From: Mayamaea pseudoterrestris
Taxonomy: Eukaryota
Direction of reading: 5' to 3'
DNA length: 64,000 nt
Assembly: GCA_027923505.1 (NCBI GenBank)
Contig: BROI01000002.1
Span: forward strand, 1,488,001 to 1,552,000
The notes below the pieces were generated by a model. That model had not been told where the DNA came from, did no database searches, and saw nothing but the letters and a program-made list of their open reading frames with translations. The position numbers and the translations under genes were made by a program. Positions 1 through 9,573 of the stretch are shown in pieces; the stretch's first letter is position 1; every line of letters begins with the position of its first letter.

Positions 1-630
1 CAAGCGGCAGCAACTGCCTTGATGAGCCATCCAGAAGCAGCATTTCGCTTACATTGAAAATCAAAACGAGAAAGACGCATGCTGCTGGAACTAATGATAT
101 ACTCTTGCAGCTCTTCGCCGGCTGTCGGTAGGTAGGAGAAGGCTCGGTGCCTAACATATCTGTCATGGTGACTACCGGTAGTACTTGTAGCACTTGTGGT
201 TGATCTTCTCGCGTTTCAAAATGCCGTTGGAATATCATGACGTTTTGGGGCTTAACTATATTTTTCCTCCACCTCCGTTGGAGTCATGGTACGATAAAAG
301 GACGTTTTTATAAAGCTATGTGGTTAAATAGAGATGAGCCCGACCAAGTTGGCGATGCTCCATGTTTGAAGTGGCGAAGAATATTCAAATGTTGATGGAA
401 GTAGCGCTTTCTTTGAATCGCATTGTGGGATAATGTACCCATTGGCGGATGGAGGGTCTGTGATCGAGCAGCAGCAGCTGCTTAACGCCACAGCTGGCTT
501 TCTGTGGGTCTATTATGTTCTTACCTGCTCAAGGGAGGAGGAGCCATTCTGAGGTAGCAGTATAAATATGAACGTCTCGTTATTTATATGGCCACAACTT
601 GCCACGGCCACACTCGTCCCCTCCATCGCA

Positions 631-1860
631 CTAATATTCCTCGACATCATGCTGTCGATGAATCGTGGGTGGCTCGCCTCCATTGGCCTGGAGCATTGAC
701 TCCCACAATTTTTCCATTACAAGCAAGCGCTGCGTCGACATGTCAATGCCTTGTAGAAACTGGACCCGCTCCGCTCCAGGGCTCAATGCTTGCAGCTGTT
801 GCATAACTAGCTGAGATGCGTGTTTCGCTTGGGCGAGTTTGATCTCACGCTCCTCTGGTCCCATGGATAACAGTTCCCCGAGAATTTCCTGATGGAGCTT
901 GGAAGCTTGCTTCGCCATGTCCCATTGACTTGCTTGCTCAGCGGCATTACCTTTCTGGGAATCCTCTCGTATATGCTCTGATGATGGTACGTTTACAGCT
1001 AGATTATCATTGCTTGTTGTCAATGTCGACGTTGCAATCACTTGCCCCGATGCCGCGTCAATAATCTGCTCGGAATATTCCACGTTGACGACGCGCGTGG
1101 AGCCTCCTTGATCATGATCGTTCAGACTCGACTTCATCGACTCCATGGTGGCGTTTTGAATGGCGGCACTTAATGTGGCGCCCATGTTTGCCAACAGACG
1201 AGTTAATTCCTCGTCGTTAGATGATGCTTCAAGTAGTCGCTTGATTTCCGCCGCTCCAAAGTCTGCATCGTAGCCAATGGCACGGAGGAACATTTGCTGA
1301 ATCCGTTCCAATCGCTCCTGCGGAAAGAATGGGGCTGGCAACGTTTCGTGCAAGTCGGCAAAAAGTGGTGCGCCAGACGAAAGGTGTGACTGGACGTTGG
1401 GCAGTCGGACTGCAACGTTGCACAAGCCAATGAATTCCACTAGATCCGACCGACTCATAGAACCTGATGACTTCAGTGATCGTTGTTTCCTTGCCGCATA
1501 TGATTGGACTTCCCATGAACATTCCGAGTGTAGCACTAATCGAGCAAAGGCAAGGCGAGCAGCTTCATTCATCTTGTCCATAACAGTCTTGACTGGGAGC
1601 GGCAGAAGTTCTTCTCGCGTTCCAAGCTTTTGTAAATGGGCTTGGACTTGACTCGTCGTAACATGCTTATCGCCAGACTCTTGTGCTGCGTTGTACTGGT
1701 TTATCCATTGCTCTAAACATGCAAGTTGCGTCGACAAGAGGCGCTGGCGAATCTCGGAAATGTCAAGTGCAGCAGCCGAAGCTTGATCCAAGACGAGTTC
1801 GTTCAGTGACTTCTCGGCCAATTCAAAGAATTCAATAAAAACAGAGTCGTTCAGTTCCAT
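631..1860 (-). CDS. Hypothetical protein (409 aa, helical)
   Basis: Long single ORF with ATG and protein-like composition; no family motif recognised. Confidence 0.7.
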   Translation of the reverse strand: MELNDSVFIEFFELAEKSLNELVLDQASAAALDISEIRQRLLSTQLACLEQWINQYNAAQESGDKHVTTSQVQAHLQKLGTREELLPLPVKTVMDKMNEAARLAFARLVLHSECSWEVQSYAARKQRSLKSSGSMSRSDLVEFIGLCNVAVRLPNVQSHLSSGAPLFADLHETLPAPFFPQERLERIQQMFLRAIGYDADFGAAEIKRLLEASSNDEELTRLLANMGATLSAAIQNATMESMKSSLNDHDQGGSTRVVNVEYSEQIIDAASGQVIATSTLTTSNDNLAVNVPSSEHIREDSQKGNAAEQASQWDMAKQASKLHQEILGELLSMGPEEREIKLAQAKHASQLVMQQLQALSPGAERVQFLQGIDMSTQRLLVMEKLWESMLQANGGEPPTIHRQHDVEEY

Positions 1861-1976
1861 GTTTAACCGGATGTGAAAGAGAACAACAATCGTAGCTTTC
1901 TACAACGACAAAAGCCTGCCTTTTGGACTGGACGCTGCGACGATCTTGTGACGATTTTGCTTTGATCGTCGAACGG

Positions 1977-1984
1977 TTTATATA
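1977..1984 (+). promoter_or_regulatory. TATA-like element upstream of the permuted tRNA
   Basis: TTTATATA about 30 nt upstream of the 3' half; function inferred from position. Confidence 0.45.
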
Positions 1985-2014
1985 GATTCTGAGAACCTTT
2001 TCAGCACGGTAATT

Positions 2015-2095
2015 TTCGAATGGTCGGGTGTTCGACTCACCCCTGGTGCTTCTTCCGATGCACTAGTAGCTCAGTGGCAGAGCGTTCGATTGCAG
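2015..2095 (+). tRNA. tRNA-Cys(GCA): Circularly permuted tRNA-Cys(GCA): 3' half 2015-2050, 9-nt spacer 2051-2059, 5' half 2060-2095
   Basis: 5' half is GCACTAG TA GCTC AGTGGCA GAGC G TTCGA TT GCA G. 3' half is T TCGAA TGGTC GGGTG TTCGACT CACCC CTGGTGC T. Joined, they give a 7-bp acceptor stem (GCACTAG/CTGGTGC), D stem GCTC/GAGC, anticodon stem TTCGA/TCGAA, T stem GGGTG/CACCC, anticodon GCA (2092-2094) and the Cys discriminator U73 (2050). Confidence 0.9.
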
Positions 2096-2100
2096 TCCAC

Positions 2101-2104
2101 TTTT
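2101..2104 (+). terminator. Putative RNA polymerase III terminator (T4)
   Basis: TTTT begins 6 nt after the end of the 5' half; a longer T run follows at about 2123-2128. Confidence 0.5.
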
Positions 2105-2503
2105 GCATATGCTTAATAACTCTTTTTTAAGTTAAAGCAGGGTCTTGCCAATTGTTATGACTGTTTCATCGTTATTGATCGCTATTACCGGTATATTACA
2201 GGAGCTTCGCGGCACCAAGCCTTTACCGCAGCGGTACTTCTGGATCACCAATCAGTAGTCGACAAAACGTCGACCCGTTTTGTACACGAAGTGCAATAGT
2301 TATCGTGAATTGCGTCACGATGTTCTTTAAATATAGGGAAAAGTGTTCGAAGAACACAAGCGGCTTCGATGGAACCAGTACACGGAACATCAAAGTCCAC
2401 GTCTCGACATGCTCACAACCCACGTGGAAGTTGGCATAGAAACGTGGGAGGTTCGCAAGTGTGATCATCCGCGATCCGCGACCACAATCATTGTCCATCA
2501 CGA

Positions 2504-2863
2504 ATGACGGAAGATAATTTGACCATGACAGCCCTCAACAACTCGCCGAATGCACCAGCAGCGCGTCAACCTCGTCGCGTCCGTCTCAAAACTCCCAGCT
2601 CATTGTCTGGAATGCTGGAAGGTTCGAAGCCGTCAGCCGCTGCCGCAAAACCTGTCGAACATGAGCACCGTCGCTCAAAAGCACTCGTGATGAGCAACGA
2701 AGAGCTTCAGTTGCTGGCTCGCAGCCTTCGTCGCGCCAAGCGCCGACTGCTACTTGCCGCTGTGGCGCAACCGAATGACATTCATCAAGATTCGCAAGAG
2801 TTTACGGAGAGTGACGACTCTGAATTATTCCAAACCCGCAGCGAAGCCTTTGCCGCGTCCTAA
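2504..2863 (+). CDS. Small hypothetical protein (119 aa)
   Basis: ATG-initiated ORF with protein-like low-complexity and basic sequence; no domain recognised. Confidence 0.5.
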   Translation: MTEDNLTMTALNNSPNAPAARQPRRVRLKTPSSLSGMLEGSKPSAAAAKPVEHEHRRSKALVMSNEELQLLARSLRRAKRRLLLAAVAQPNDIHQDSQEFTESDDSELFQTRSEAFAAS

Positions 2864-3603
2864 CGGAGGCTAATGCAATTTGCGACGCAATGACCGACAA
2901 ACTTACCAATGTACCAGCAATTTCTTTACTTACAATCTCAGTTGTTGACTCGAAATCAGGGTAATCTGCACATGAAGATGAATTCCTTGATAGGCGATTC
3001 AAGTTTACTGGCAACTGGCAATGGCGTAACCATGGATGCCATGCATCAATATATACGTTGCGTCGCATTCAGTTTGCTTGACAATGATGACTGAAAGTGT
3101 AGCTTATACGATCTATATTTCATTTATAAACATCATATAACCTTCTCTACATATCCTGCTCGTTCATTTATCGTTTGTAGCCTACTAAAGTATTTGGCAC
3201 GTCACGTCAGCTCGTCAACCCTCAAAGTTGTAAGCCCAAGAATGGGTAACCATTCCGAATCCTTCTACCTACAGATCTATATGCGCTGTTTTTATATCCA
3301 TGACGTGAAGAATGCTGATTAGTATCTGTCAGCAGATGGTAGCAATCTCTAGCTGGCGCATGATGGATGATAGCCGCAAATCGTACCGGCACTGCCACGT
3401 GGAGGTACACGACTGCGTGACACGCCTCCACCATGATGATTCTTTCGAACAAAGTCGACTTGACTGCTTGTATCAATCGTCCTGCTTCAGAGTCATTTTC
3501 TAAAGGAAAGATAGTCAGCAATTCTCTCATAGTAATGCTTTCAAGTGCATTGTGCAATTCTACACATCGCCTCGTGTCTCGTCGCCAAACACTGTCATTC
3601 ATC

Positions 3604-4431
3604 ATGAAGCGCAACATTGTCTTGACATCACTCGCTGGAGCTCTTGCTACTTGTTCAAAATATAACGTGAATGCCTTTTCTATACAAAATCCATCTGTTC
3701 AATCATTCACGTCTACATATAGGCATGGTCTTCCATTTCAAGTGAGCAGTCGCTCATATCATTCGTCGGCACGCACGTCTCTCTTCGCCAGCAAGAACAA
3801 CAACGACAACAGCGGCGGCGGCCTCGTCGAAACGGTCAAAAACGTTGCCAAGACGATTCTCCCATCCAGTTGGTTCCAAAGCCAGCAGGAAAAGAAGGCT
3901 GCCATTGAAAAGTCTCGTCGCATGCAGGAAATCAAAAGCAATCTTAAGGAAATGCTGCAGGATGCGCCACTGCCAATGCGCATCATGGGCGGCCTGGTAG
4001 GCAACGTGTTTTCGAGCGCGCTGTCGAGCATGGCGGAAACCATGCAGGAGCAGCAGGAGACTGTGAGTGAGTTGCTGCGTCAGGCGGAGCGAGCCATACT
4101 GGCGGATAATGCGGCAGTGGCGGCGCTGGGCGCGCCCATTGTTGTGGCGAAGCAGCCCTTTTCGCAGTCGTCCAGCACCACTTCCATCAACGGCAAGACG
4201 GTGACGAACGTTCAACTCGGCTTTGCCGTGAATGGGAGTCTTCAGTCGGGTGTCGCGCAGCTAACGTCGGATGGAACTGGTATTCGGCAGCTGGTGGTGC
4301 AGGTGGGAGGTCGCGTTCTTTCCGTGAATCCGACGGTCGGGCAAGCGTCCGCTGCGACTGGTCGGCGAAGAATGGATGAAAGTGACATCATCGAGGCGGA
4401 GATTATTGAAAAGGAGACCAAGCTAAAGTAA
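3604..4431 (+). CDS. Putative plastid-targeted conserved hypothetical protein
   Basis: Likely start MKRNIVLTSLAGAL at 3604 within ORF 3433-4431. Signal peptide followed by 'NAF' and a Ser/Arg-rich transit region; globular C-terminus (QPFSQSSSTTSING). Confidence 0.7.
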   Translation: MKRNIVLTSLAGALATCSKYNVNAFSIQNPSVQSFTSTYRHGLPFQVSSRSYHSSARTSLFASKNNNDNSGGGLVETVKNVAKTILPSSWFQSQQEKKAAIEKSRRMQEIKSNLKEMLQDAPLPMRIMGGLVGNVFSSALSSMAETMQEQQETVSELLRQAERAILADNAAVAALGAPIVVAKQPFSQSSSTTSINGKTVTNVQLGFAVNGSLQSGVAQLTSDGTGIRQLVVQVGGRVLSVNPTVGQASAATGRRRMDESDIIEAEIIEKETKLK

Positions 4432-4663
4432 TTATAGTCGATAGAATATGTATGATTTATGTGCAAGAGTTTGTGGGTACTTGTAGTAAAAGAAGCAATG
4501 CGATCACACAATGAGGCACTGTATTTGAACACGTGGCACCACAAATCAGCAGGCTACCCTGTAACAGAAAATTAGATTCCACATTCGTTACCACTAAGGT
4601 AGATGGTTGGCCATTGAAGAGGAGCAGGACATGCCGCAACGCATCGAAAGGCCATGTCAGCCT

Positions 4664-5905
4664 TCAATCTTCTAGCTCGACATTCGAGAATTTGCATGAG
4701 CCGGTTGAAACTTCCACATAGGGGATCAATTCGCAATCATCGGGAACTTTCCATCCAATGAGACAAACATTCTCCAATAACTCCTCTTTTCCATGCTCAA
4801 GAGATCGGTTGGTCGCAGCAACCAGGGCACCGTCAATAAAAAACTCTAATTCATCCGTGTATATATTCTTGCCGCACCGAAATACAGAATTTTCGTGAAT
4901 CGTGATGGCAATGGGATTGCACATTTTCAATAAACCATCACGACCAATGTAGCGCAATGCCTTCATCTGCGTATCAAAGATCATTGGTTGGATATGCTTT
5001 AGAAAAGCTGGTCTGTCAACGGCATAAATGGGCTCTCTATGAATCCACCCAATGCGACACAAAGATGGTCCGCTTAGCGCCACTTCAAATGCTTGTACTT
5101 GACGGGTATGAGATGCTCCAAATTTAAGTTTTGGTCGATCGAGACAAACGCGTTGAATGCTGCCTGGTGCATCGATCTGGTCGTTCTCAAGGGTAATATC
5201 TAAAATGGAGCCGTTTTGAGAGATCATAGAACGACTGTTCCATATTTGAACCGACTCTCCAAATTTGTAAATCTCGTAGTTGTAACAGACATTTGTTAAC
5301 CCGAAAGCGTCGACCATGGTTCGAAATCCTAGCTCATCCTTGGGATCCTTGAACGACGGCGTCATGGGAGGAAAGTTGCTCGTCGTGGCGGTCATGGAGC
5401 TCAACGTGCGCAAAAAGTCCAGTAATGGAACGAACAGCTCGGGCTTGTAATCAATGAAAAAACTTCCTTGCTCATTCTTGGGGAGAGAATCATCCCAGCG
5501 TCCGCTAAAGGTTTCTGCGAGCTTGCTTCCTTTCGTGTAAGTCAATGTGCTACGAAGCGTCTGAATCAATTTCTCTCCGCCAATATTCAAAGTCAATACG
5601 TCGCTCCCCAAAGCTTTCTTATCATACTTTTTGCTTAAGCACGTGTCTGTTCGCTGACGCTTCGACTTGCCGTCATTCGGGCCGCTGGAGTCTTGATCTT
5701 CAGCAACATCGTCGTGATGACGCTGCCGTGAGCTTTCGGCGGCGGCCGCAGCGTCGTCGTGCTCAACAGCGTTAGCTGGATTCATGGCTACAATCGCTTG
5801 ATCGTCTGTTCTTGAGAATGCTTGCTTCAATGAGGGTCGTGATGCAATATTTAATAAGGAGTATTGCGCAGCGGTACAATAGTGCCGCAGCTTGCTTTGT
5901 GGCAA
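4664..5905 (-). CDS. BTB/POZ (KCTD/T1-type) domain protein with beta-rich C-terminal domain
   Basis: VLTLNIGG..TLRSTLT...GSKLAETFSGRWD....FFID..PELFVPLLDFLR is the KCTD-type BTB signature. Confidence 0.85.
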   Translation of the reverse strand: MPQSKLRHYCTAAQYSLLNIASRPSLKQAFSRTDDQAIVAMNPANAVEHDDAAAAAESSRQRHHDDVAEDQDSSGPNDGKSKRQRTDTCLSKKYDKKALGSDVLTLNIGGEKLIQTLRSTLTYTKGSKLAETFSGRWDDSLPKNEQGSFFIDYKPELFVPLLDFLRTLSSMTATTSNFPPMTPSFKDPKDELGFRTMVDAFGLTNVCYNYEIYKFGESVQIWNSRSMISQNGSILDITLENDQIDAPGSIQRVCLDRPKLKFGASHTRQVQAFEVALSGPSLCRIGWIHREPIYAVDRPAFLKHIQPMIFDTQMKALRYIGRDGLLKMCNPIAITIHENSVFRCGKNIYTDELEFFIDGALVAATNRSLEHGKEELLENVCLIGWKVPDDCELIPYVEVSTGSCKFSNVELED

Positions 5906-6127
5906 GCGTCAAGGCGGAGGATCCAAAATCCATCTCGTGTCGCAGCGGGTTTGGATTTCTTTTAAAAGCGAGACGCTTTGCGGGCAGATCTGCAAATCAC
6001 ACTCATCGAGAACACGCACCACTAACGAGCAACTCCCATCCTTGACGCGGAATGAACCGCTCAATCATGCAGGAATAGAATATTTCAAGGGAGTCGTCTC
6101 GCCGGTGGCGCTTGCAGAATTTACTGG

Positions 6128-7558
6128 ATGCGGGGTGCACTGGCAACAATGCCGACCGCGACTCCTGCATCCATGTACTTTTACTATCAAAACTGCTCAG
6201 AGATAAAAGTGAACATGCTGCTCTTAATTTTTCTATGTCTCGCAGTTTGTCAGGTGTGTGCAAATGACTTGCAAATTACTCTTATTGCGTCATCGCCATT
6301 TTACATGGCGTTGCGACCAACCGCCAAAGAGATTGACTTTACCGCCATCCAAGCAGTTGCAAACGCCATTTCTGTATCGCTACTTGCACAACAAAGTCAG
6401 AATGCCTATTTGGATATGGAGGTTGTGACGCAGCAAGTGGACTTTATTTCGCCGTCGACTTCGCGACTCCGCTTCTTTGTGCTGGCAACGACCATTGTCC
6501 AGGCTTCGGATAGTGTCGCCGACGAGAAGCAGGCATTGGATTTGCTGCTCACCATGACATTTACAGACTCGGTTGCTAAAGCTGATTTTGTGAAGCAAGT
6601 TCGCTCGGCTTCGCAGCTGCAAAATGTTACGCAAGCAGCTCTGGCGCCAGTTGTTTCTAATTCATCGGCAGGCACATCGGGCTCGAAGAAGACGCTTTCT
6701 GTTCTTGACATTGTGCTGATCTCAATAAGTATACTCATTTTTCTCGGCATTGTATACATGGTCGTTGAACATCACCGCGACCGAGGTTGGCTGGAGAATC
6801 AGCGCATGTTTACCGCGAACGAAGCTAGTCATTCACCAGAACACACTTTGGCGTATCCCAGCACACCGCCCAGCATAAAAACTGCTGGACGGGAGCGGCA
6901 ACTTTCAGATATGGACGGACTTTCCACGACTCCAAGCTCGCCTAACTCGGATTCTGGGGCCAACGCGTCGGGTGCTCCGCGACAAGCAAAGTTGACTTAT
7001 TCGCCTCGTCTTACAAGTGTCTCGAGCCTTCCTTCGACGCCCATTCCGTTACTACCTCCGTCGTCTTTGGATGTCGAGTCACTTTCACATTCACGGTCTT
7101 CGTACAGGTCTGAAAGGACAATTCGCTTTGATCAGTCGACAAGTCCTAACAGAAGCTGCACGGGGATTAAAGTCGATAAACGCGGCACTGACTGCCCTGC
7201 AGGCAAAGGTGCCACTGAGATGGGCGGCATTAACTCCACCGAAAGCAGTGAGGATGTTTTCCATATTGATATGCAAGCAGTGAAAGGCAAGGACGATTCG
7301 GTCGAGGATGACGACGTGGCGAGTAAGCAAAGCGCGGCATCCGCAATTTCCGATTGGATCAAGGGCATACGCGTGGTTTCATCCAACAAATCGAACCTCT
7401 CTCAGTCGAGCAATATTTCGACCGCATCCATGGCAGAATCCAGCTTGGGGCAGTCATCCTTAGAGCAGCTGTCGCTGGAACACAGCATGGCTGACTCCTC
7501 AGTTGGTGAGCCAGATCTGGATGAAGTAGTAGTAAGCGATGAGCACATTCCGGTATAG
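6128..7558 (+). CDS. Single-pass membrane protein with Ser-rich cytoplasmic tail
   Basis: Hydrophobic signal-like segment (MLLLIFLCLAVCQVCA; true start probably this Met) and a TM helix (IVLISISILIFLGIVYMVV). Confidence 0.7.
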   Translation: MRGALATMPTATPASMYFYYQNCSEIKVNMLLLIFLCLAVCQVCANDLQITLIASSPFYMALRPTAKEIDFTAIQAVANAISVSLLAQQSQNAYLDMEVVTQQVDFISPSTSRLRFFVLATTIVQASDSVADEKQALDLLLTMTFTDSVAKADFVKQVRSASQLQNVTQAALAPVVSNSSAGTSGSKKTLSVLDIVLISISILIFLGIVYMVVEHHRDRGWLENQRMFTANEASHSPEHTLAYPSTPPSIKTAGRERQLSDMDGLSTTPSSPNSDSGANASGAPRQAKLTYSPRLTSVSSLPSTPIPLLPPSSLDVESLSHSRSSYRSERTIRFDQSTSPNRSCTGIKVDKRGTDCPAGKGATEMGGINSTESSEDVFHIDMQAVKGKDDSVEDDDVASKQSAASAISDWIKGIRVVSSNKSNLSQSSNISTASMAESSLGQSSLEQLSLEHSMADSSVGEPDLDEVVVSDEHIPV

Positions 7559-7743
7559 TACGATGCAAGCATGACTGTTTCAGCCAAAGCAGGAACTATA
7601 TAAGAAAATAAATTCTCAAGTTAATTTTAGCCGGTCATCAAACTCACAACGACATTTCGCGAGCACCTTGGGGAACTCCACTACAATAGTATTACATACA
7701 GTACAACAAAGACACTTGTCAACACCTCAACCATCCGCGAACA

Positions 7744-9573
7744 TCAACTTTCACTATCCATGTTCTTGTCTTTGGGTGACCGCCGCAGCCATCGTGACAG
7801 TCGCGAGCGCGACTTTTTGATTCTTTCTCCTGTTACTTGCACCGATGCACTGAGCAAAGACCGATAGCTGGTGCGTAAGTGCTGCAATTCTTTCTCCTGA
7901 TCTTGAACCGTTCGTCGAAGACTCTGTATATCAGAATTCAAGTTTGCAATTTCCCGATTCCTTTGAGACAACGTCGCAATATAACGCTTTTCGACATTCT
8001 TGCTGTCGGCAACGGCGGCGTTTCGTTCTTTTTGCAGCTTATCCAAGAGTAGCTGAAGTTCATCATTTTTATTGTGCGATGCTTCAAGATCCGTTTCAAG
8101 TGATGACAAGCTTGTACTGAGCGTCTGTATTTGCGTCTCGTACTTATCTTTTAGTCGTTTTTCGTTCTTTCGTGCATCGCGCTTGGCACCTTCCCAAAGT
8201 GCAGTCATTTCTTGCCTTATCGCTTCGAATCGATCATTCATTTGCCGTTTCTTCAATCTGCCTATTCGAATCTCGTCCTCGAGGCGTTTGTTGTACTTTT
8301 CCTCCATGGACTCGTAACTAAGCTTTTCCTCTTCGAGTCGCTCCTCCATTTGCTGGAGACGAGACTGTTCCTCGTCAATCCGACTTTCTAACGTCAGCTT
8401 CTCACTTTCGAACCTTACTTGTTCCTTCTCTAGACGCTCCGCCAAGCTCTTTACCGCAAGTTGCTCAATACGAATCTTCTTTTCAAGATTGCCTTGAACC
8501 TCGCGGAAGCGAGCTTGCTCGCTCTTCATCATCGACTCAACTTGCTGCAGCTTTTCCCGCTCCTCCTCCAGTTGCTTTTTTAGATCCTTTCGATCCTTTT
8601 CGCTAGTTGTCCGTTCAACTGCAAGGTCAGCTGTCCGTTCAGCGAGCAGCTTCTTTTGCTCCTCCAGCTGCGTTTTAAAGTCGCGCTCCTGTCGCTCAAA
8701 GTCTACTTGGTTTTGCTTCCATTCACGCTCCCGCTCCTCGAGACGCCCCCTCTCCTCGCGCAGTTGCTGCTCCATATTCTCCTTTTCCTTTGTGAATCGC
8801 TTCTTGTCACTATTCCACGTTGCTTCAATATCTTCAAGTCGCTTCTTTTCCTGCATGACTGTCGCTTGCAGCTCCTTTTTCTCCTGACTAAACTCCATTT
8901 GCTGAAACTCCAATGCATCTTCAATTTCATGCAGACGCTCCTTGAGTTGCTCCGATACACGCTGCTCCTGCTGAAAGGCTTGCATGGCCTGATTCATTTG
9001 ATCCTGCAGCAACGAAACTTCTCGCTCCAAGCGGTCGCGCTCGTCGGCATCTTCCTCCGACGCAACCTGATTCATATTAAACAGTGACTGCAGTTCCGCC
9101 AACTTTCCCAGCAAGCCAGTCTTTTCCATGCTCCATTGGTCGGAGGCGCGTTGGAGTTGCTTGTTCTTGGCGGCAAGCTGTGACTGTAAATCCAGCAGGG
9201 ACTGCTCGAGCCACTCGAGTTTGGCGGCGGATTCGTCCGTGGCGTTGCGCGTGGCTTGGTAGTCGTACTCGAGTTTGCCGGTCGGAGGGGGATAGTATGG
9301 GGGATGGGGAGTGCTGTCGTCTTTGTCGTCGTCCACGTCGACGGATGTTGCTGTCGTCGTGTCACGCGCCGATGTAGCGAGGCGCATCGACGGGCGATTA
9401 AACGAGAAAGATCCTTGGAGATTGGCTGCTGCATCTCTGCATCCAGTTATTCCAAAGTTTTTGAAGGTGATCCTTGTAGCCGATAAAGTCGGTGTTTTGG
9501 CGACGGAAAAGGAGTAAGCGAATGGAACGATCCACAAGGTAAAGAGAATGGAAACTCGTCCGTTGTTCTTCAT
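7744..9573 (-). CDS. Putative plastid-targeted long coiled-coil protein
   Basis: Signal peptide + 'YSF' + transit-like region, then about 480 aa of E/K/Q/R-rich heptads. Confidence 0.8.
   Translation of the reverse strand: MKNNGRVSILFTLWIVPFAYSFSVAKTPTLSATRITFKNFGITGCRDAAANLQGSFSFNRPSMRLATSARDTTTATSVDVDDDKDDSTPHPPYYPPPTGKLEYDYQATRNATDESAAKLEWLEQSLLDLQSQLAAKNKQLQRASDQWSMEKTGLLGKLAELQSLFNMNQVASEEDADERDRLEREVSLLQDQMNQAMQAFQQEQRVSEQLKERLHEIEDALEFQQMEFSQEKKELQATVMQEKKRLEDIEATWNSDKKRFTKEKENMEQQLREERGRLEEREREWKQNQVDFERQERDFKTQLEEQKKLLAERTADLAVERTTSEKDRKDLKKQLEEEREKLQQVESMMKSEQARFREVQGNLEKKIRIEQLAVKSLAERLEKEQVRFESEKLTLESRIDEEQSRLQQMEERLEEEKLSYESMEEKYNKRLEDEIRIGRLKKRQMNDRFEAIRQEMTALWEGAKRDARKNEKRLKDKYETQIQTLSTSLSSLETDLEASHNKNDELQLLLDKLQKERNAAVADSKNVEKRYIATLSQRNREIANLNSDIQSLRRTVQDQEKELQHLRTSYRSLLSASVQVTGERIKKSRSRLSRWLRRSPKDKNMDSES

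Follow-up and report, generated by a model that had tools for sequence, protein, structure and literature searches.

The nuclear genome of the diatom Mayamaea pseudoterrestris very probably carries a functional, circularly permuted tRNA-Cys(GCA) gene of type II, the class in which the junction lies between nucleotides 37 and 38 of the tRNA; we put the probability of this reading at about 85%. We analysed the gene within a stretch of 64,000 nucleotides, called the window here, and all positions are those of the window. The type II reading rests on the anatomy of the locus, on its ability to fold and on the conservation and covariation of a splice motif among related precursors, whereas the enzymatic steps, the circular intermediate and the transcription start are modelled on the pathway described in algae.

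Results

Anatomy of the locus

The tRNA's 3' half sits upstream of its 5' half, with both on one strand, and the two are separated at their acceptor ends by a short spacer (Table 1), which is the arrangement of a type II gene. The upstream half holds the 3' strand of the anticodon stem, the variable loop, the T arm, the 3' strand of the acceptor stem and the discriminator U. The downstream half holds the 5' strand of the acceptor stem, the D arm, the 5' strand of the anticodon stem and the anticodon loop up to G37 (TTGCAG), and is followed by a trailer that reads T, CCAC and TTTT (2101-2104).

Table 1. Sequence features of the permuted tRNA-Cys(GCA) locus, in window positions
Feature	Position	Strand	Basis and remarks
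TATA-like element TTTATATAG	1977..1985	+	sequence; core starts 36 nt upstream of tRNA nt 38; putative TFIIIB-dependent promoter
Splice-motif leader strand	2008..2014	+	G2008, closing pair; GUAA 2009-2012, central helix; UU 2013-2014, removed part of bulge
3' half of tRNA-Cys(GCA), nt 38-73	2015..2050	+	ARAGORN on coordinate-joined halves
B box (T-arm) GTTCGACTC	2030..2038	+	sequence; upstream of A box
9-nt intervening sequence	2051..2059	+	closes acceptor stem in precursor
5' half of tRNA-Cys(GCA), nt 1-37	2060..2095	+	ARAGORN on joined halves
A box (D arm) TAGCTCAGTGG	2067..2077	+	sequence; downstream of B box
Splice-motif anticodon-loop strand	2090..2097	+	UUGC, nt 32-35; A36, G37 and U2096, 5'-site bulge; C2097, closing pair
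First T-run (T4) 3' of gene	2101..2104	+	putative RNA polymerase III terminator
T6 run downstream	2123..2128	+	sequence

We joined the halves by their coordinates in a script (2060-2095 followed by 2015-2050) and ran ARAGORN on the product, which was called a 72-nt tRNA-Cys(gca) with discriminator U73. The joined form is a canonical cloverleaf with stems of 7, 4, 5 and 5 bp in which all positions pair, and it shows the consensus elements U8, G18G19, U33, a TTCGA T-loop and U73. In its native order, the window yielded no tRNA call from ARAGORN or Rfam, as is expected for a permuted gene. The whole 64 kb contains a single convincing T-arm, the one at the permuted locus, so there is no neighbouring half that would complete a conventional gene. 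Positions 1900-2200 were matched without difference by one contig from a public DNA run, which may be the assembly's own source and is not counted as independent.

A first-pass annotation of this DNA had recognized a permuted tRNA here, with GTAA (2009-2012) and TTT (2013-2015) before the 3' half and TTGC (2090-2093) and AGT (2094-2096) at the end of the 5' half. Its coordinates agree with the sequence base for base. It had also held that cutting after the second base of each bulge would give exactly the 37/38 junction, and the halves produced in this way, 2015-2050 and 2060-2095, are those that ARAGORN reads as tRNA-Cys(gca).

Folding of the splice motif

In the motif as proposed, the leader GUAA pairs with U32 to C35 in a 4-bp helix between two 3-nt bulges, UUU and AGU, and the second bulge is closed by G2008-C2097. 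When positions 2000-2104 were folded with RNAfold, the 4-bp helix and the UUU bulge were present in the minimum free energy (MFE) structure, and the pairs of the helix had probabilities of 0.78-0.82. The other side of the motif fared differently: at the 5' site the MFE structure favoured C2007-G2095 (0.68) and A2006-U2096 (0.65), and the AGU bulge closed by G2008-C2097 had a probability of 0.002 in the thermodynamic ensemble. Thermodynamically, the proposed 5'-site bulge is not the preferred form at this locus. The z-scores of the folds were modest (-1.8 and -1.5), and we estimate from pairing rules that a leader matching at all four positions at a fixed register occurs by chance about once in 30-80 cases (~0.03). 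Taken from the Mayamaea locus alone, the splice motif is suggestive, not conclusive, and could be a product of chance. The case for a motif beyond chance comes from comparative data, in which the register, the bulges and the closing pair reappear in a set of 31 distinct precursors.

The anticodon-intron pair of eukaryotic splice sites is present at the Mayamaea locus as U32(2090):A2012. The strict archaeal hBHBh' form, with at least two pairs in h', is not, because G2008-C2097 pairs and C2007/C2098 do not. The Mayamaea motif is of the relaxed eukaryotic hBH type, with an h' of one pair.

Related precursors in metagenomes

Metagenome contigs were scanned for a T-loop with a tRNA-Cys D-arm and anticodon loop 27-57 nt downstream of it, and at least 119 loci were obtained. 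These were filtered for 7/7 acceptor-stem and 5/5 anticodon-stem pairs between the upstream 3' half and the downstream 5' half; the two stems served as the selection filter, and their 100% pairing in the retained set is by construction. The filter was passed by 40 hits, corresponding to 33 distinct precursors with the Mayamaea locus included, among the matches listed. Among these, all 33 were called tRNA-Cys(gca) in the joined form and 0/33 were called tRNA-Cys as native segments. Locus L079 was dropped as a permuted precursor; it consists of a conventional tRNA-Lys followed by a tRNA-Cys. We also left out L042, whose trailer is cut by the end of the locus and which duplicates L043. The final set from the matches listed comprises 31 precursors with 21 distinct mature sequences, and its members are mutually related, so that the counts below are not fully independent. 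Among the matches listed, no mature sequence is identical to that of Mayamaea, the closest sharing 65/72 bases, and the spacers are 8-37 nt long.

A tblastn search with five window ORFs against the at least 119 loci gave no match, and in blastn of the window against the same loci the tRNA itself was the sole match among those listed. Comparison of the relatives' flanks with each other by tblastx matched near-identical contigs only, and 2/22 ORFs in these flanks had a Pfam match. For a rhodanese ORF beside locus L003, the best relative with a source name falls in a cluster that includes a sequence from the diatom Ditylum brightwellii, at only 41% identity; we do not claim from this that the clade resembling the window consists of diatoms.

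Conservation and covariation

The leader at -6 to -3 pairs with nt 32-35 at all four positions in 21/33 precursors and at three in 7, among the matches listed. The 12/33 without a perfect 4-bp helix are these 7 and 5 others with two to no pairs, 3 of which have one or none. At 15 other registers, full pairing was seen in 0-3/33 of the listed precursors; the register first proposed for the helix is the conserved one. In the 31 precursors of the final set, again among the matches listed, leader position -5, opposite G34, is C in 21 and U in 6, and position -4, opposite U33, is A in 25 and G in 4. Position -3, which is the anticodon-intron-pair position of eukaryotic splice sites, covaries with nt 32: the combination is U:A in 17, C:G in 6 and U:G in 3, and it is unpaired in 5 of the 31 listed.

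The closing pair, formed by -7 with trailer position +2, is present in 23/31 precursors among the matches listed and occurs as five pair types (AU 7, CG 7, GC 3, GU 3 and UA 3). When partners were shuffled, the mean was 11.4 (sd 2.4), and 23 was reached in 0/2000 shuffles; at neighbouring registers the count was 7-14/31 in the same listed matches. At the Mayamaea locus this pair is G2008-C2097. The length of h' is 0-2 bp in 27/31 and 3-9 bp in 4/31 of the precursors listed, in keeping with the relaxed hBH type that the review gives for green algae (PMC3978253). Counting each mature sequence once (n=21, among the matches listed), the 4/4 helix is found in 14, the closing pair in 17 and both in 12. 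Unconstrained MFE folds show the central helix in 15/31 listed precursors only.

These data bear on the bulge-helix-bulge (BHB)-like motif of the first-pass annotation in two ways. The complementarity of the leader, on whose conservation in relatives the proposal had been staked, is conserved and covaries. The likeness to BHB holds for a relaxed hBH motif and not for a strict hBHBh' one, there being one pair beyond the 5'-site bulge.

The helix is also kept at 4/4 in all five loci in which a tRNA-like 3' end lies just before the leader (L027, L039, L043, L062 and L024). Since it is kept directly behind these ends, the helix needs no transcription start as its explanation.

In L027 (tRNA-Ala at 31-104, permuted tRNA-Cys from 111), L039 and L042/L043, a conventional tRNA-Ala(UGC) ends 6-9 nt before nt 38, and the only sequence between it and the permuted tRNA-Cys is the leader strand of the splice motif; L062 and L024 have similar tRNA-like 3' ends before the leader. 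The pairs of tRNA-Ala and permuted tRNA-Cys are probably transcribed as dicistronic units. Tandem permuted tRNA-Cys units occur in L087, where they are 152 nt apart, and in L027, where a second unit starts at about 274. When introns were permitted, ARAGORN called in these loci an intron-containing tRNA-Cys made up of unit 1's 5' half, the spacer and unit 2's 3' half, which resembles the tandem-duplication model of how permuted genes originate.

Putative promoter and terminator

The A-then-B order of an internal type 2 polymerase III promoter, with a tRNA-like spacing that lets TFIIIC bind the two boxes, is not found at the locus. As the first-pass annotation had noted, the B box, at 2030, comes before the A box, at 2067, which is a direct consequence of the permutation. 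From this inverted order we infer a reliance on an upstream element, as is done for algal genes in the accessible text of the published model (PMC3978253), and the TATA-like element TTTATATAG would be the promoter of the permuted tRNA-Cys. Both this element and the T4 run downstream, which had been named as further parts of the architecture, are present and have positionally enriched counterparts in the relatives. In about 30 loci among the matches listed, TATA cores number 6, 11 and 8 in the three 10-nt bins from -60 to -31, and 0-3 in every other 10-nt bin. A TATA core lies at -60 to -27 in 17/29 loci, compared with 5/28 in a control stretch, and a run of four or more T residues lies within 20 nt of the cut in 28/31 precursors, compared with 9/29 in an upstream control stretch (both among the matches listed).

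At the Mayamaea locus, the distance from the TATA core to G2008 is only 29 nt, which may put the transcription start very near the leader strand or even within it. A further T4, at 2013-2016 (the bulge UU with U38 and U39), lies inside the predicted polymerase III transcript; such a run within the unit is found in none of the other 30 precursors among the matches listed. It might cause early termination. Because this run is already contained in the predicted transcript, the T4 at 2101-2104 may fall short of a strong terminator. In several relatives among the matches listed, the T-run that comes first after the unit is a T4.

Genomic setting

With a GC content of 0.48-0.51 and RRP12, KH, BTB, PTPLA and sulfatase genes, the window is compact nuclear DNA from a eukaryote. 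Its RRP12-like ORF matches a Mayamaea pseudoterrestris protein with 100% identity along 97% of the ORF. The tRNA splicing endonuclease (TSEN) that the first-pass annotation had assigned to a "host" would thus be the cell's own enzyme, the window being diatom nuclear DNA and not that of a virus. In a collection of phages, no match to window positions 1-8000 was found, and viral contigs scanned with the same tRNA-Cys pattern gave 4 matches, none with 7/7 acceptor and 5/5 anticodon-stem pairs.

The ORF that adjoins the tRNA (409 aa, 631-1860 on the minus strand) belongs to none of the Pfam families. Most proteins related to it are environmental and lack a name; one, at 34% identity, is named by its source as coming from the diatom Licmophora paradoxa. 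An identical permuted tRNA-Cys(GCA)-like unit was seen in L063, an 18.7-kb metagenome contig, and L121, a 13-kb IMG/VR viral contig. This unit has 6/7 acceptor and 5/5 anticodon-stem pairs and discriminator G. Imperfect direct repeats, each about 30 nt long, lie on both sides of it, and its leader complement is outside the BHB register.

Proposed maturation

By analogy with the algal pathway, the TATA-like element upstream would position RNA polymerase III, which would start a few bases before G2008, transcribe the 3' half, the 9-nt spacer and the 5' half in this order, and stop at the T-runs. In its predicted fold the precursor has the body of a normal tRNA, and the spacer closes the acceptor stem. 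GUAA would pair with U32-C35 to place the 4-bp helix between the two 3-nt bulges, with U32:A2012 as the anticodon-intron pair, and the folded leader and trailer would be equivalent to a canonical 37/38 intron that has been opened. The cell's tRNA splicing endonuclease would then cut after U2014 and after G2095, and tRNA ligase would join G37 to U38 to give a circle of 81 nt. RNase P (before G2060) and tRNase Z (after U2050) would excise the spacer, as in the accessible description of the algal genes (PMC3978253), and addition of CCA would be the last step.

Alternative explanations

Plant tRNA genes carry CAA triplets upstream, at the polymerase III start. The leader word, mostly GCAA, could likewise be a start-site motif and not a pairing partner, so that the BHB would be coincidental. 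GCAA is indeed the commonest leader word among the matches listed, and TATA cores 30-55 nt upstream imply that transcription should begin nearby. However, nearly all variants of the word keep the pairing (C or U at -5 opposite G34, A or G at -4 opposite U33, and G at -3 where nt 32 is C), the Mayamaea locus has GUAA and not CAA, and the separate closing pair covaries through its five pair types. The word is, moreover, intact in the five loci that lie behind tRNA-like 3' ends, where no start is expected. We consider a start-site motif highly improbable, and we give equally little credence to the idea that the locus is an inactive remnant of a tandem tRNA-Cys duplication, composed of the 3' half of copy 1 and the 5' half of copy 2, with a conventional gene elsewhere supplying the tRNA-Cys. 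Tandem units do occur in relatives, namely in L087 and L027, across which ARAGORN reads a tRNA when introns are allowed. Yet the Mayamaea locus pairs perfectly in all four stems and keeps the discriminator U, and the 64-kb window has no second T-arm with which a normal gene could be completed. The same arrangement recurs in 21 different mature sequences with compensatory stem changes, among the matches listed, and the leader pairing, the T-run and the TATA element are conserved even though all of them lie outside the needs of tRNA coding.

Somewhat less improbable, and still unlikely, is a functional gene that is processed in another order, in which RNase P and tRNase Z remove the spacer first and the paired halves are then trimmed and ligated at 37/38 with no circle, as happens with archaeal split tRNAs. 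The sequence fixes no order of steps, and the accessible text of the review states that the order probably depends on the cellular location of the enzymes (PMC3978253). According to the same text, however, RT-PCR in both red and green algae revealed circular intermediates with the spacer still in place, and an acceptor stem closed by the spacer offers the eukaryotic endonuclease the mature domain from which it measures. We favour a functional permuted gene that is processed through a circle.

Discussion

The published account of permuted tRNA genes, as far as its text is accessible, lists 34 of them, including type II tRNA-Cys(GCA) genes of Ostreococcus tauri, O. lucimarinus and Micromonas pusilla (Soma 2014, PMC3978253). 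Its type II model comprises inverted boxes, an upstream TATA-like or AT-rich element and a T-stretch, and, in green algae, an hBH at 37/38, a circular intermediate and subsequent cleavage by RNase P and tRNase Z (PMC3978253). The Mayamaea gene shares the isoacceptor, the junction and the order of its halves with the three green-algal genes (Maruyama et al. 2010, as given in Table 1 of PMC3978253), and it also has in common with the genes of Ostreococcus and Micromonas, as there described, the hBH, the AT-rich upstream element, the T-run and the lack of an encoded CCA. The carriers differ in lineage, Mayamaea being a pennate diatom, and so a stramenopile, whereas Ostreococcus and Micromonas are green algae. 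The spacer is 9 nt long in Mayamaea and 12, 26 and 38 nt in the green-algal Cys genes for which the accessible text gives lengths. The mature Mayamaea tRNA is identical at only 42-47/72 positions to metagenome sequences of presumed green type among the matches listed, where green type was assigned from a spacer of 12 or 26 nt, C32 and A38, which is not a taxonomic test.

With the red alga Cyanidioschyzon merolae the diatom locus shares a TATA-like element within about 50 bp, a T-stretch, the inverted B and A boxes and a BHB (Soma et al. 2007; accessible text of PMC3978253). The circular intermediate was demonstrated in C. merolae and is assumed for Mayamaea (PMC3978253, same text). The C. merolae genes are described as having four junction positions, a strict hBHBh' and extra ectopic introns, whereas the Mayamaea gene has the 37/38 junction and a one-pair h', and tRNA-Cys is absent from the 11 permuted C. 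merolae genes in the accessible list (PMC3978253).

A further parallel is with the canonical 37/38 intron, a substrate of the eukaryotic splicing endonuclease. As far as the review text describes such introns (PMC3978253), they have the same 4-bp helix at nt 32-35 and the same 3-nt bulges, each cut behind its second base. The partner of nt 32 is likewise the base that lies 3 nt ahead of the 3' cut, and this pair covaries in the permuted relatives. The difference is that the Mayamaea "intron" is open, its arms being the 5' leader and the 3' trailer. Because the arms are open, ligation would give a circle and not a linear spliced tRNA.

Carriers of permuted tRNA genes reported in the accessible literature are one red alga, mamiellophycean and Auxenochlorella green algae, chlorarachniophyte nucleomorphs, one archaeon and one prasinovirus, of which the Bathycoccus and prasinovirus cases and the Auxenochlorella case are later than the 2014 review. 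A review from 2026 on the tRNA genes of photosynthetic organisms mentions, in its accessible part, no permuted case from a diatom, and in the openly accessible literature there was no report of a permuted tRNA in diatoms or stramenopiles. The Mayamaea genome paper describes, in its accessible text, a 30.6-Mb assembly that is among the smallest diatom genomes, and the word "tRNA" is absent from its main text. Thus the mechanism is already known, and the lineage, a diatom, appears to be new.

With a diatom example, the carriers of permuted tRNA genes would come to include the stramenopiles, a major group and one that is genetically tractable. The 21 mature sequences, among the matches listed, provide comparative evidence of selection on the 4-bp helix, the nt 32 pair and the single closing pair, which together would define the minimal substrate of the eukaryotic endonuclease. 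Standard tRNA finders miss this gene, so diatom tRNA-Cys may look absent in annotations. It is conceivable, and we offer it tentatively as less likely than its opposite, that the permuted 37/38 tRNA-Cys(GCA) extends beyond green and red microalgae and is widespread, unannotated and possibly the sole cytosolic form of tRNA-Cys in diatoms and other plankton lineages. If this were true, a Cys 37/38 permutation in both diatoms and Mamiellophyceae would be a rare genomic character that argues against independent invention, and it would point to common descent, for example of a green-algal gene that entered the ochrophyte ancestor, or to an origin much older than assumed. Inheritance, transfer and convergence are the possible sources of a Cys 37/38 permutation common to diatoms and Mamiellophyceae, and which of them applies bears on how permuted genes arise.
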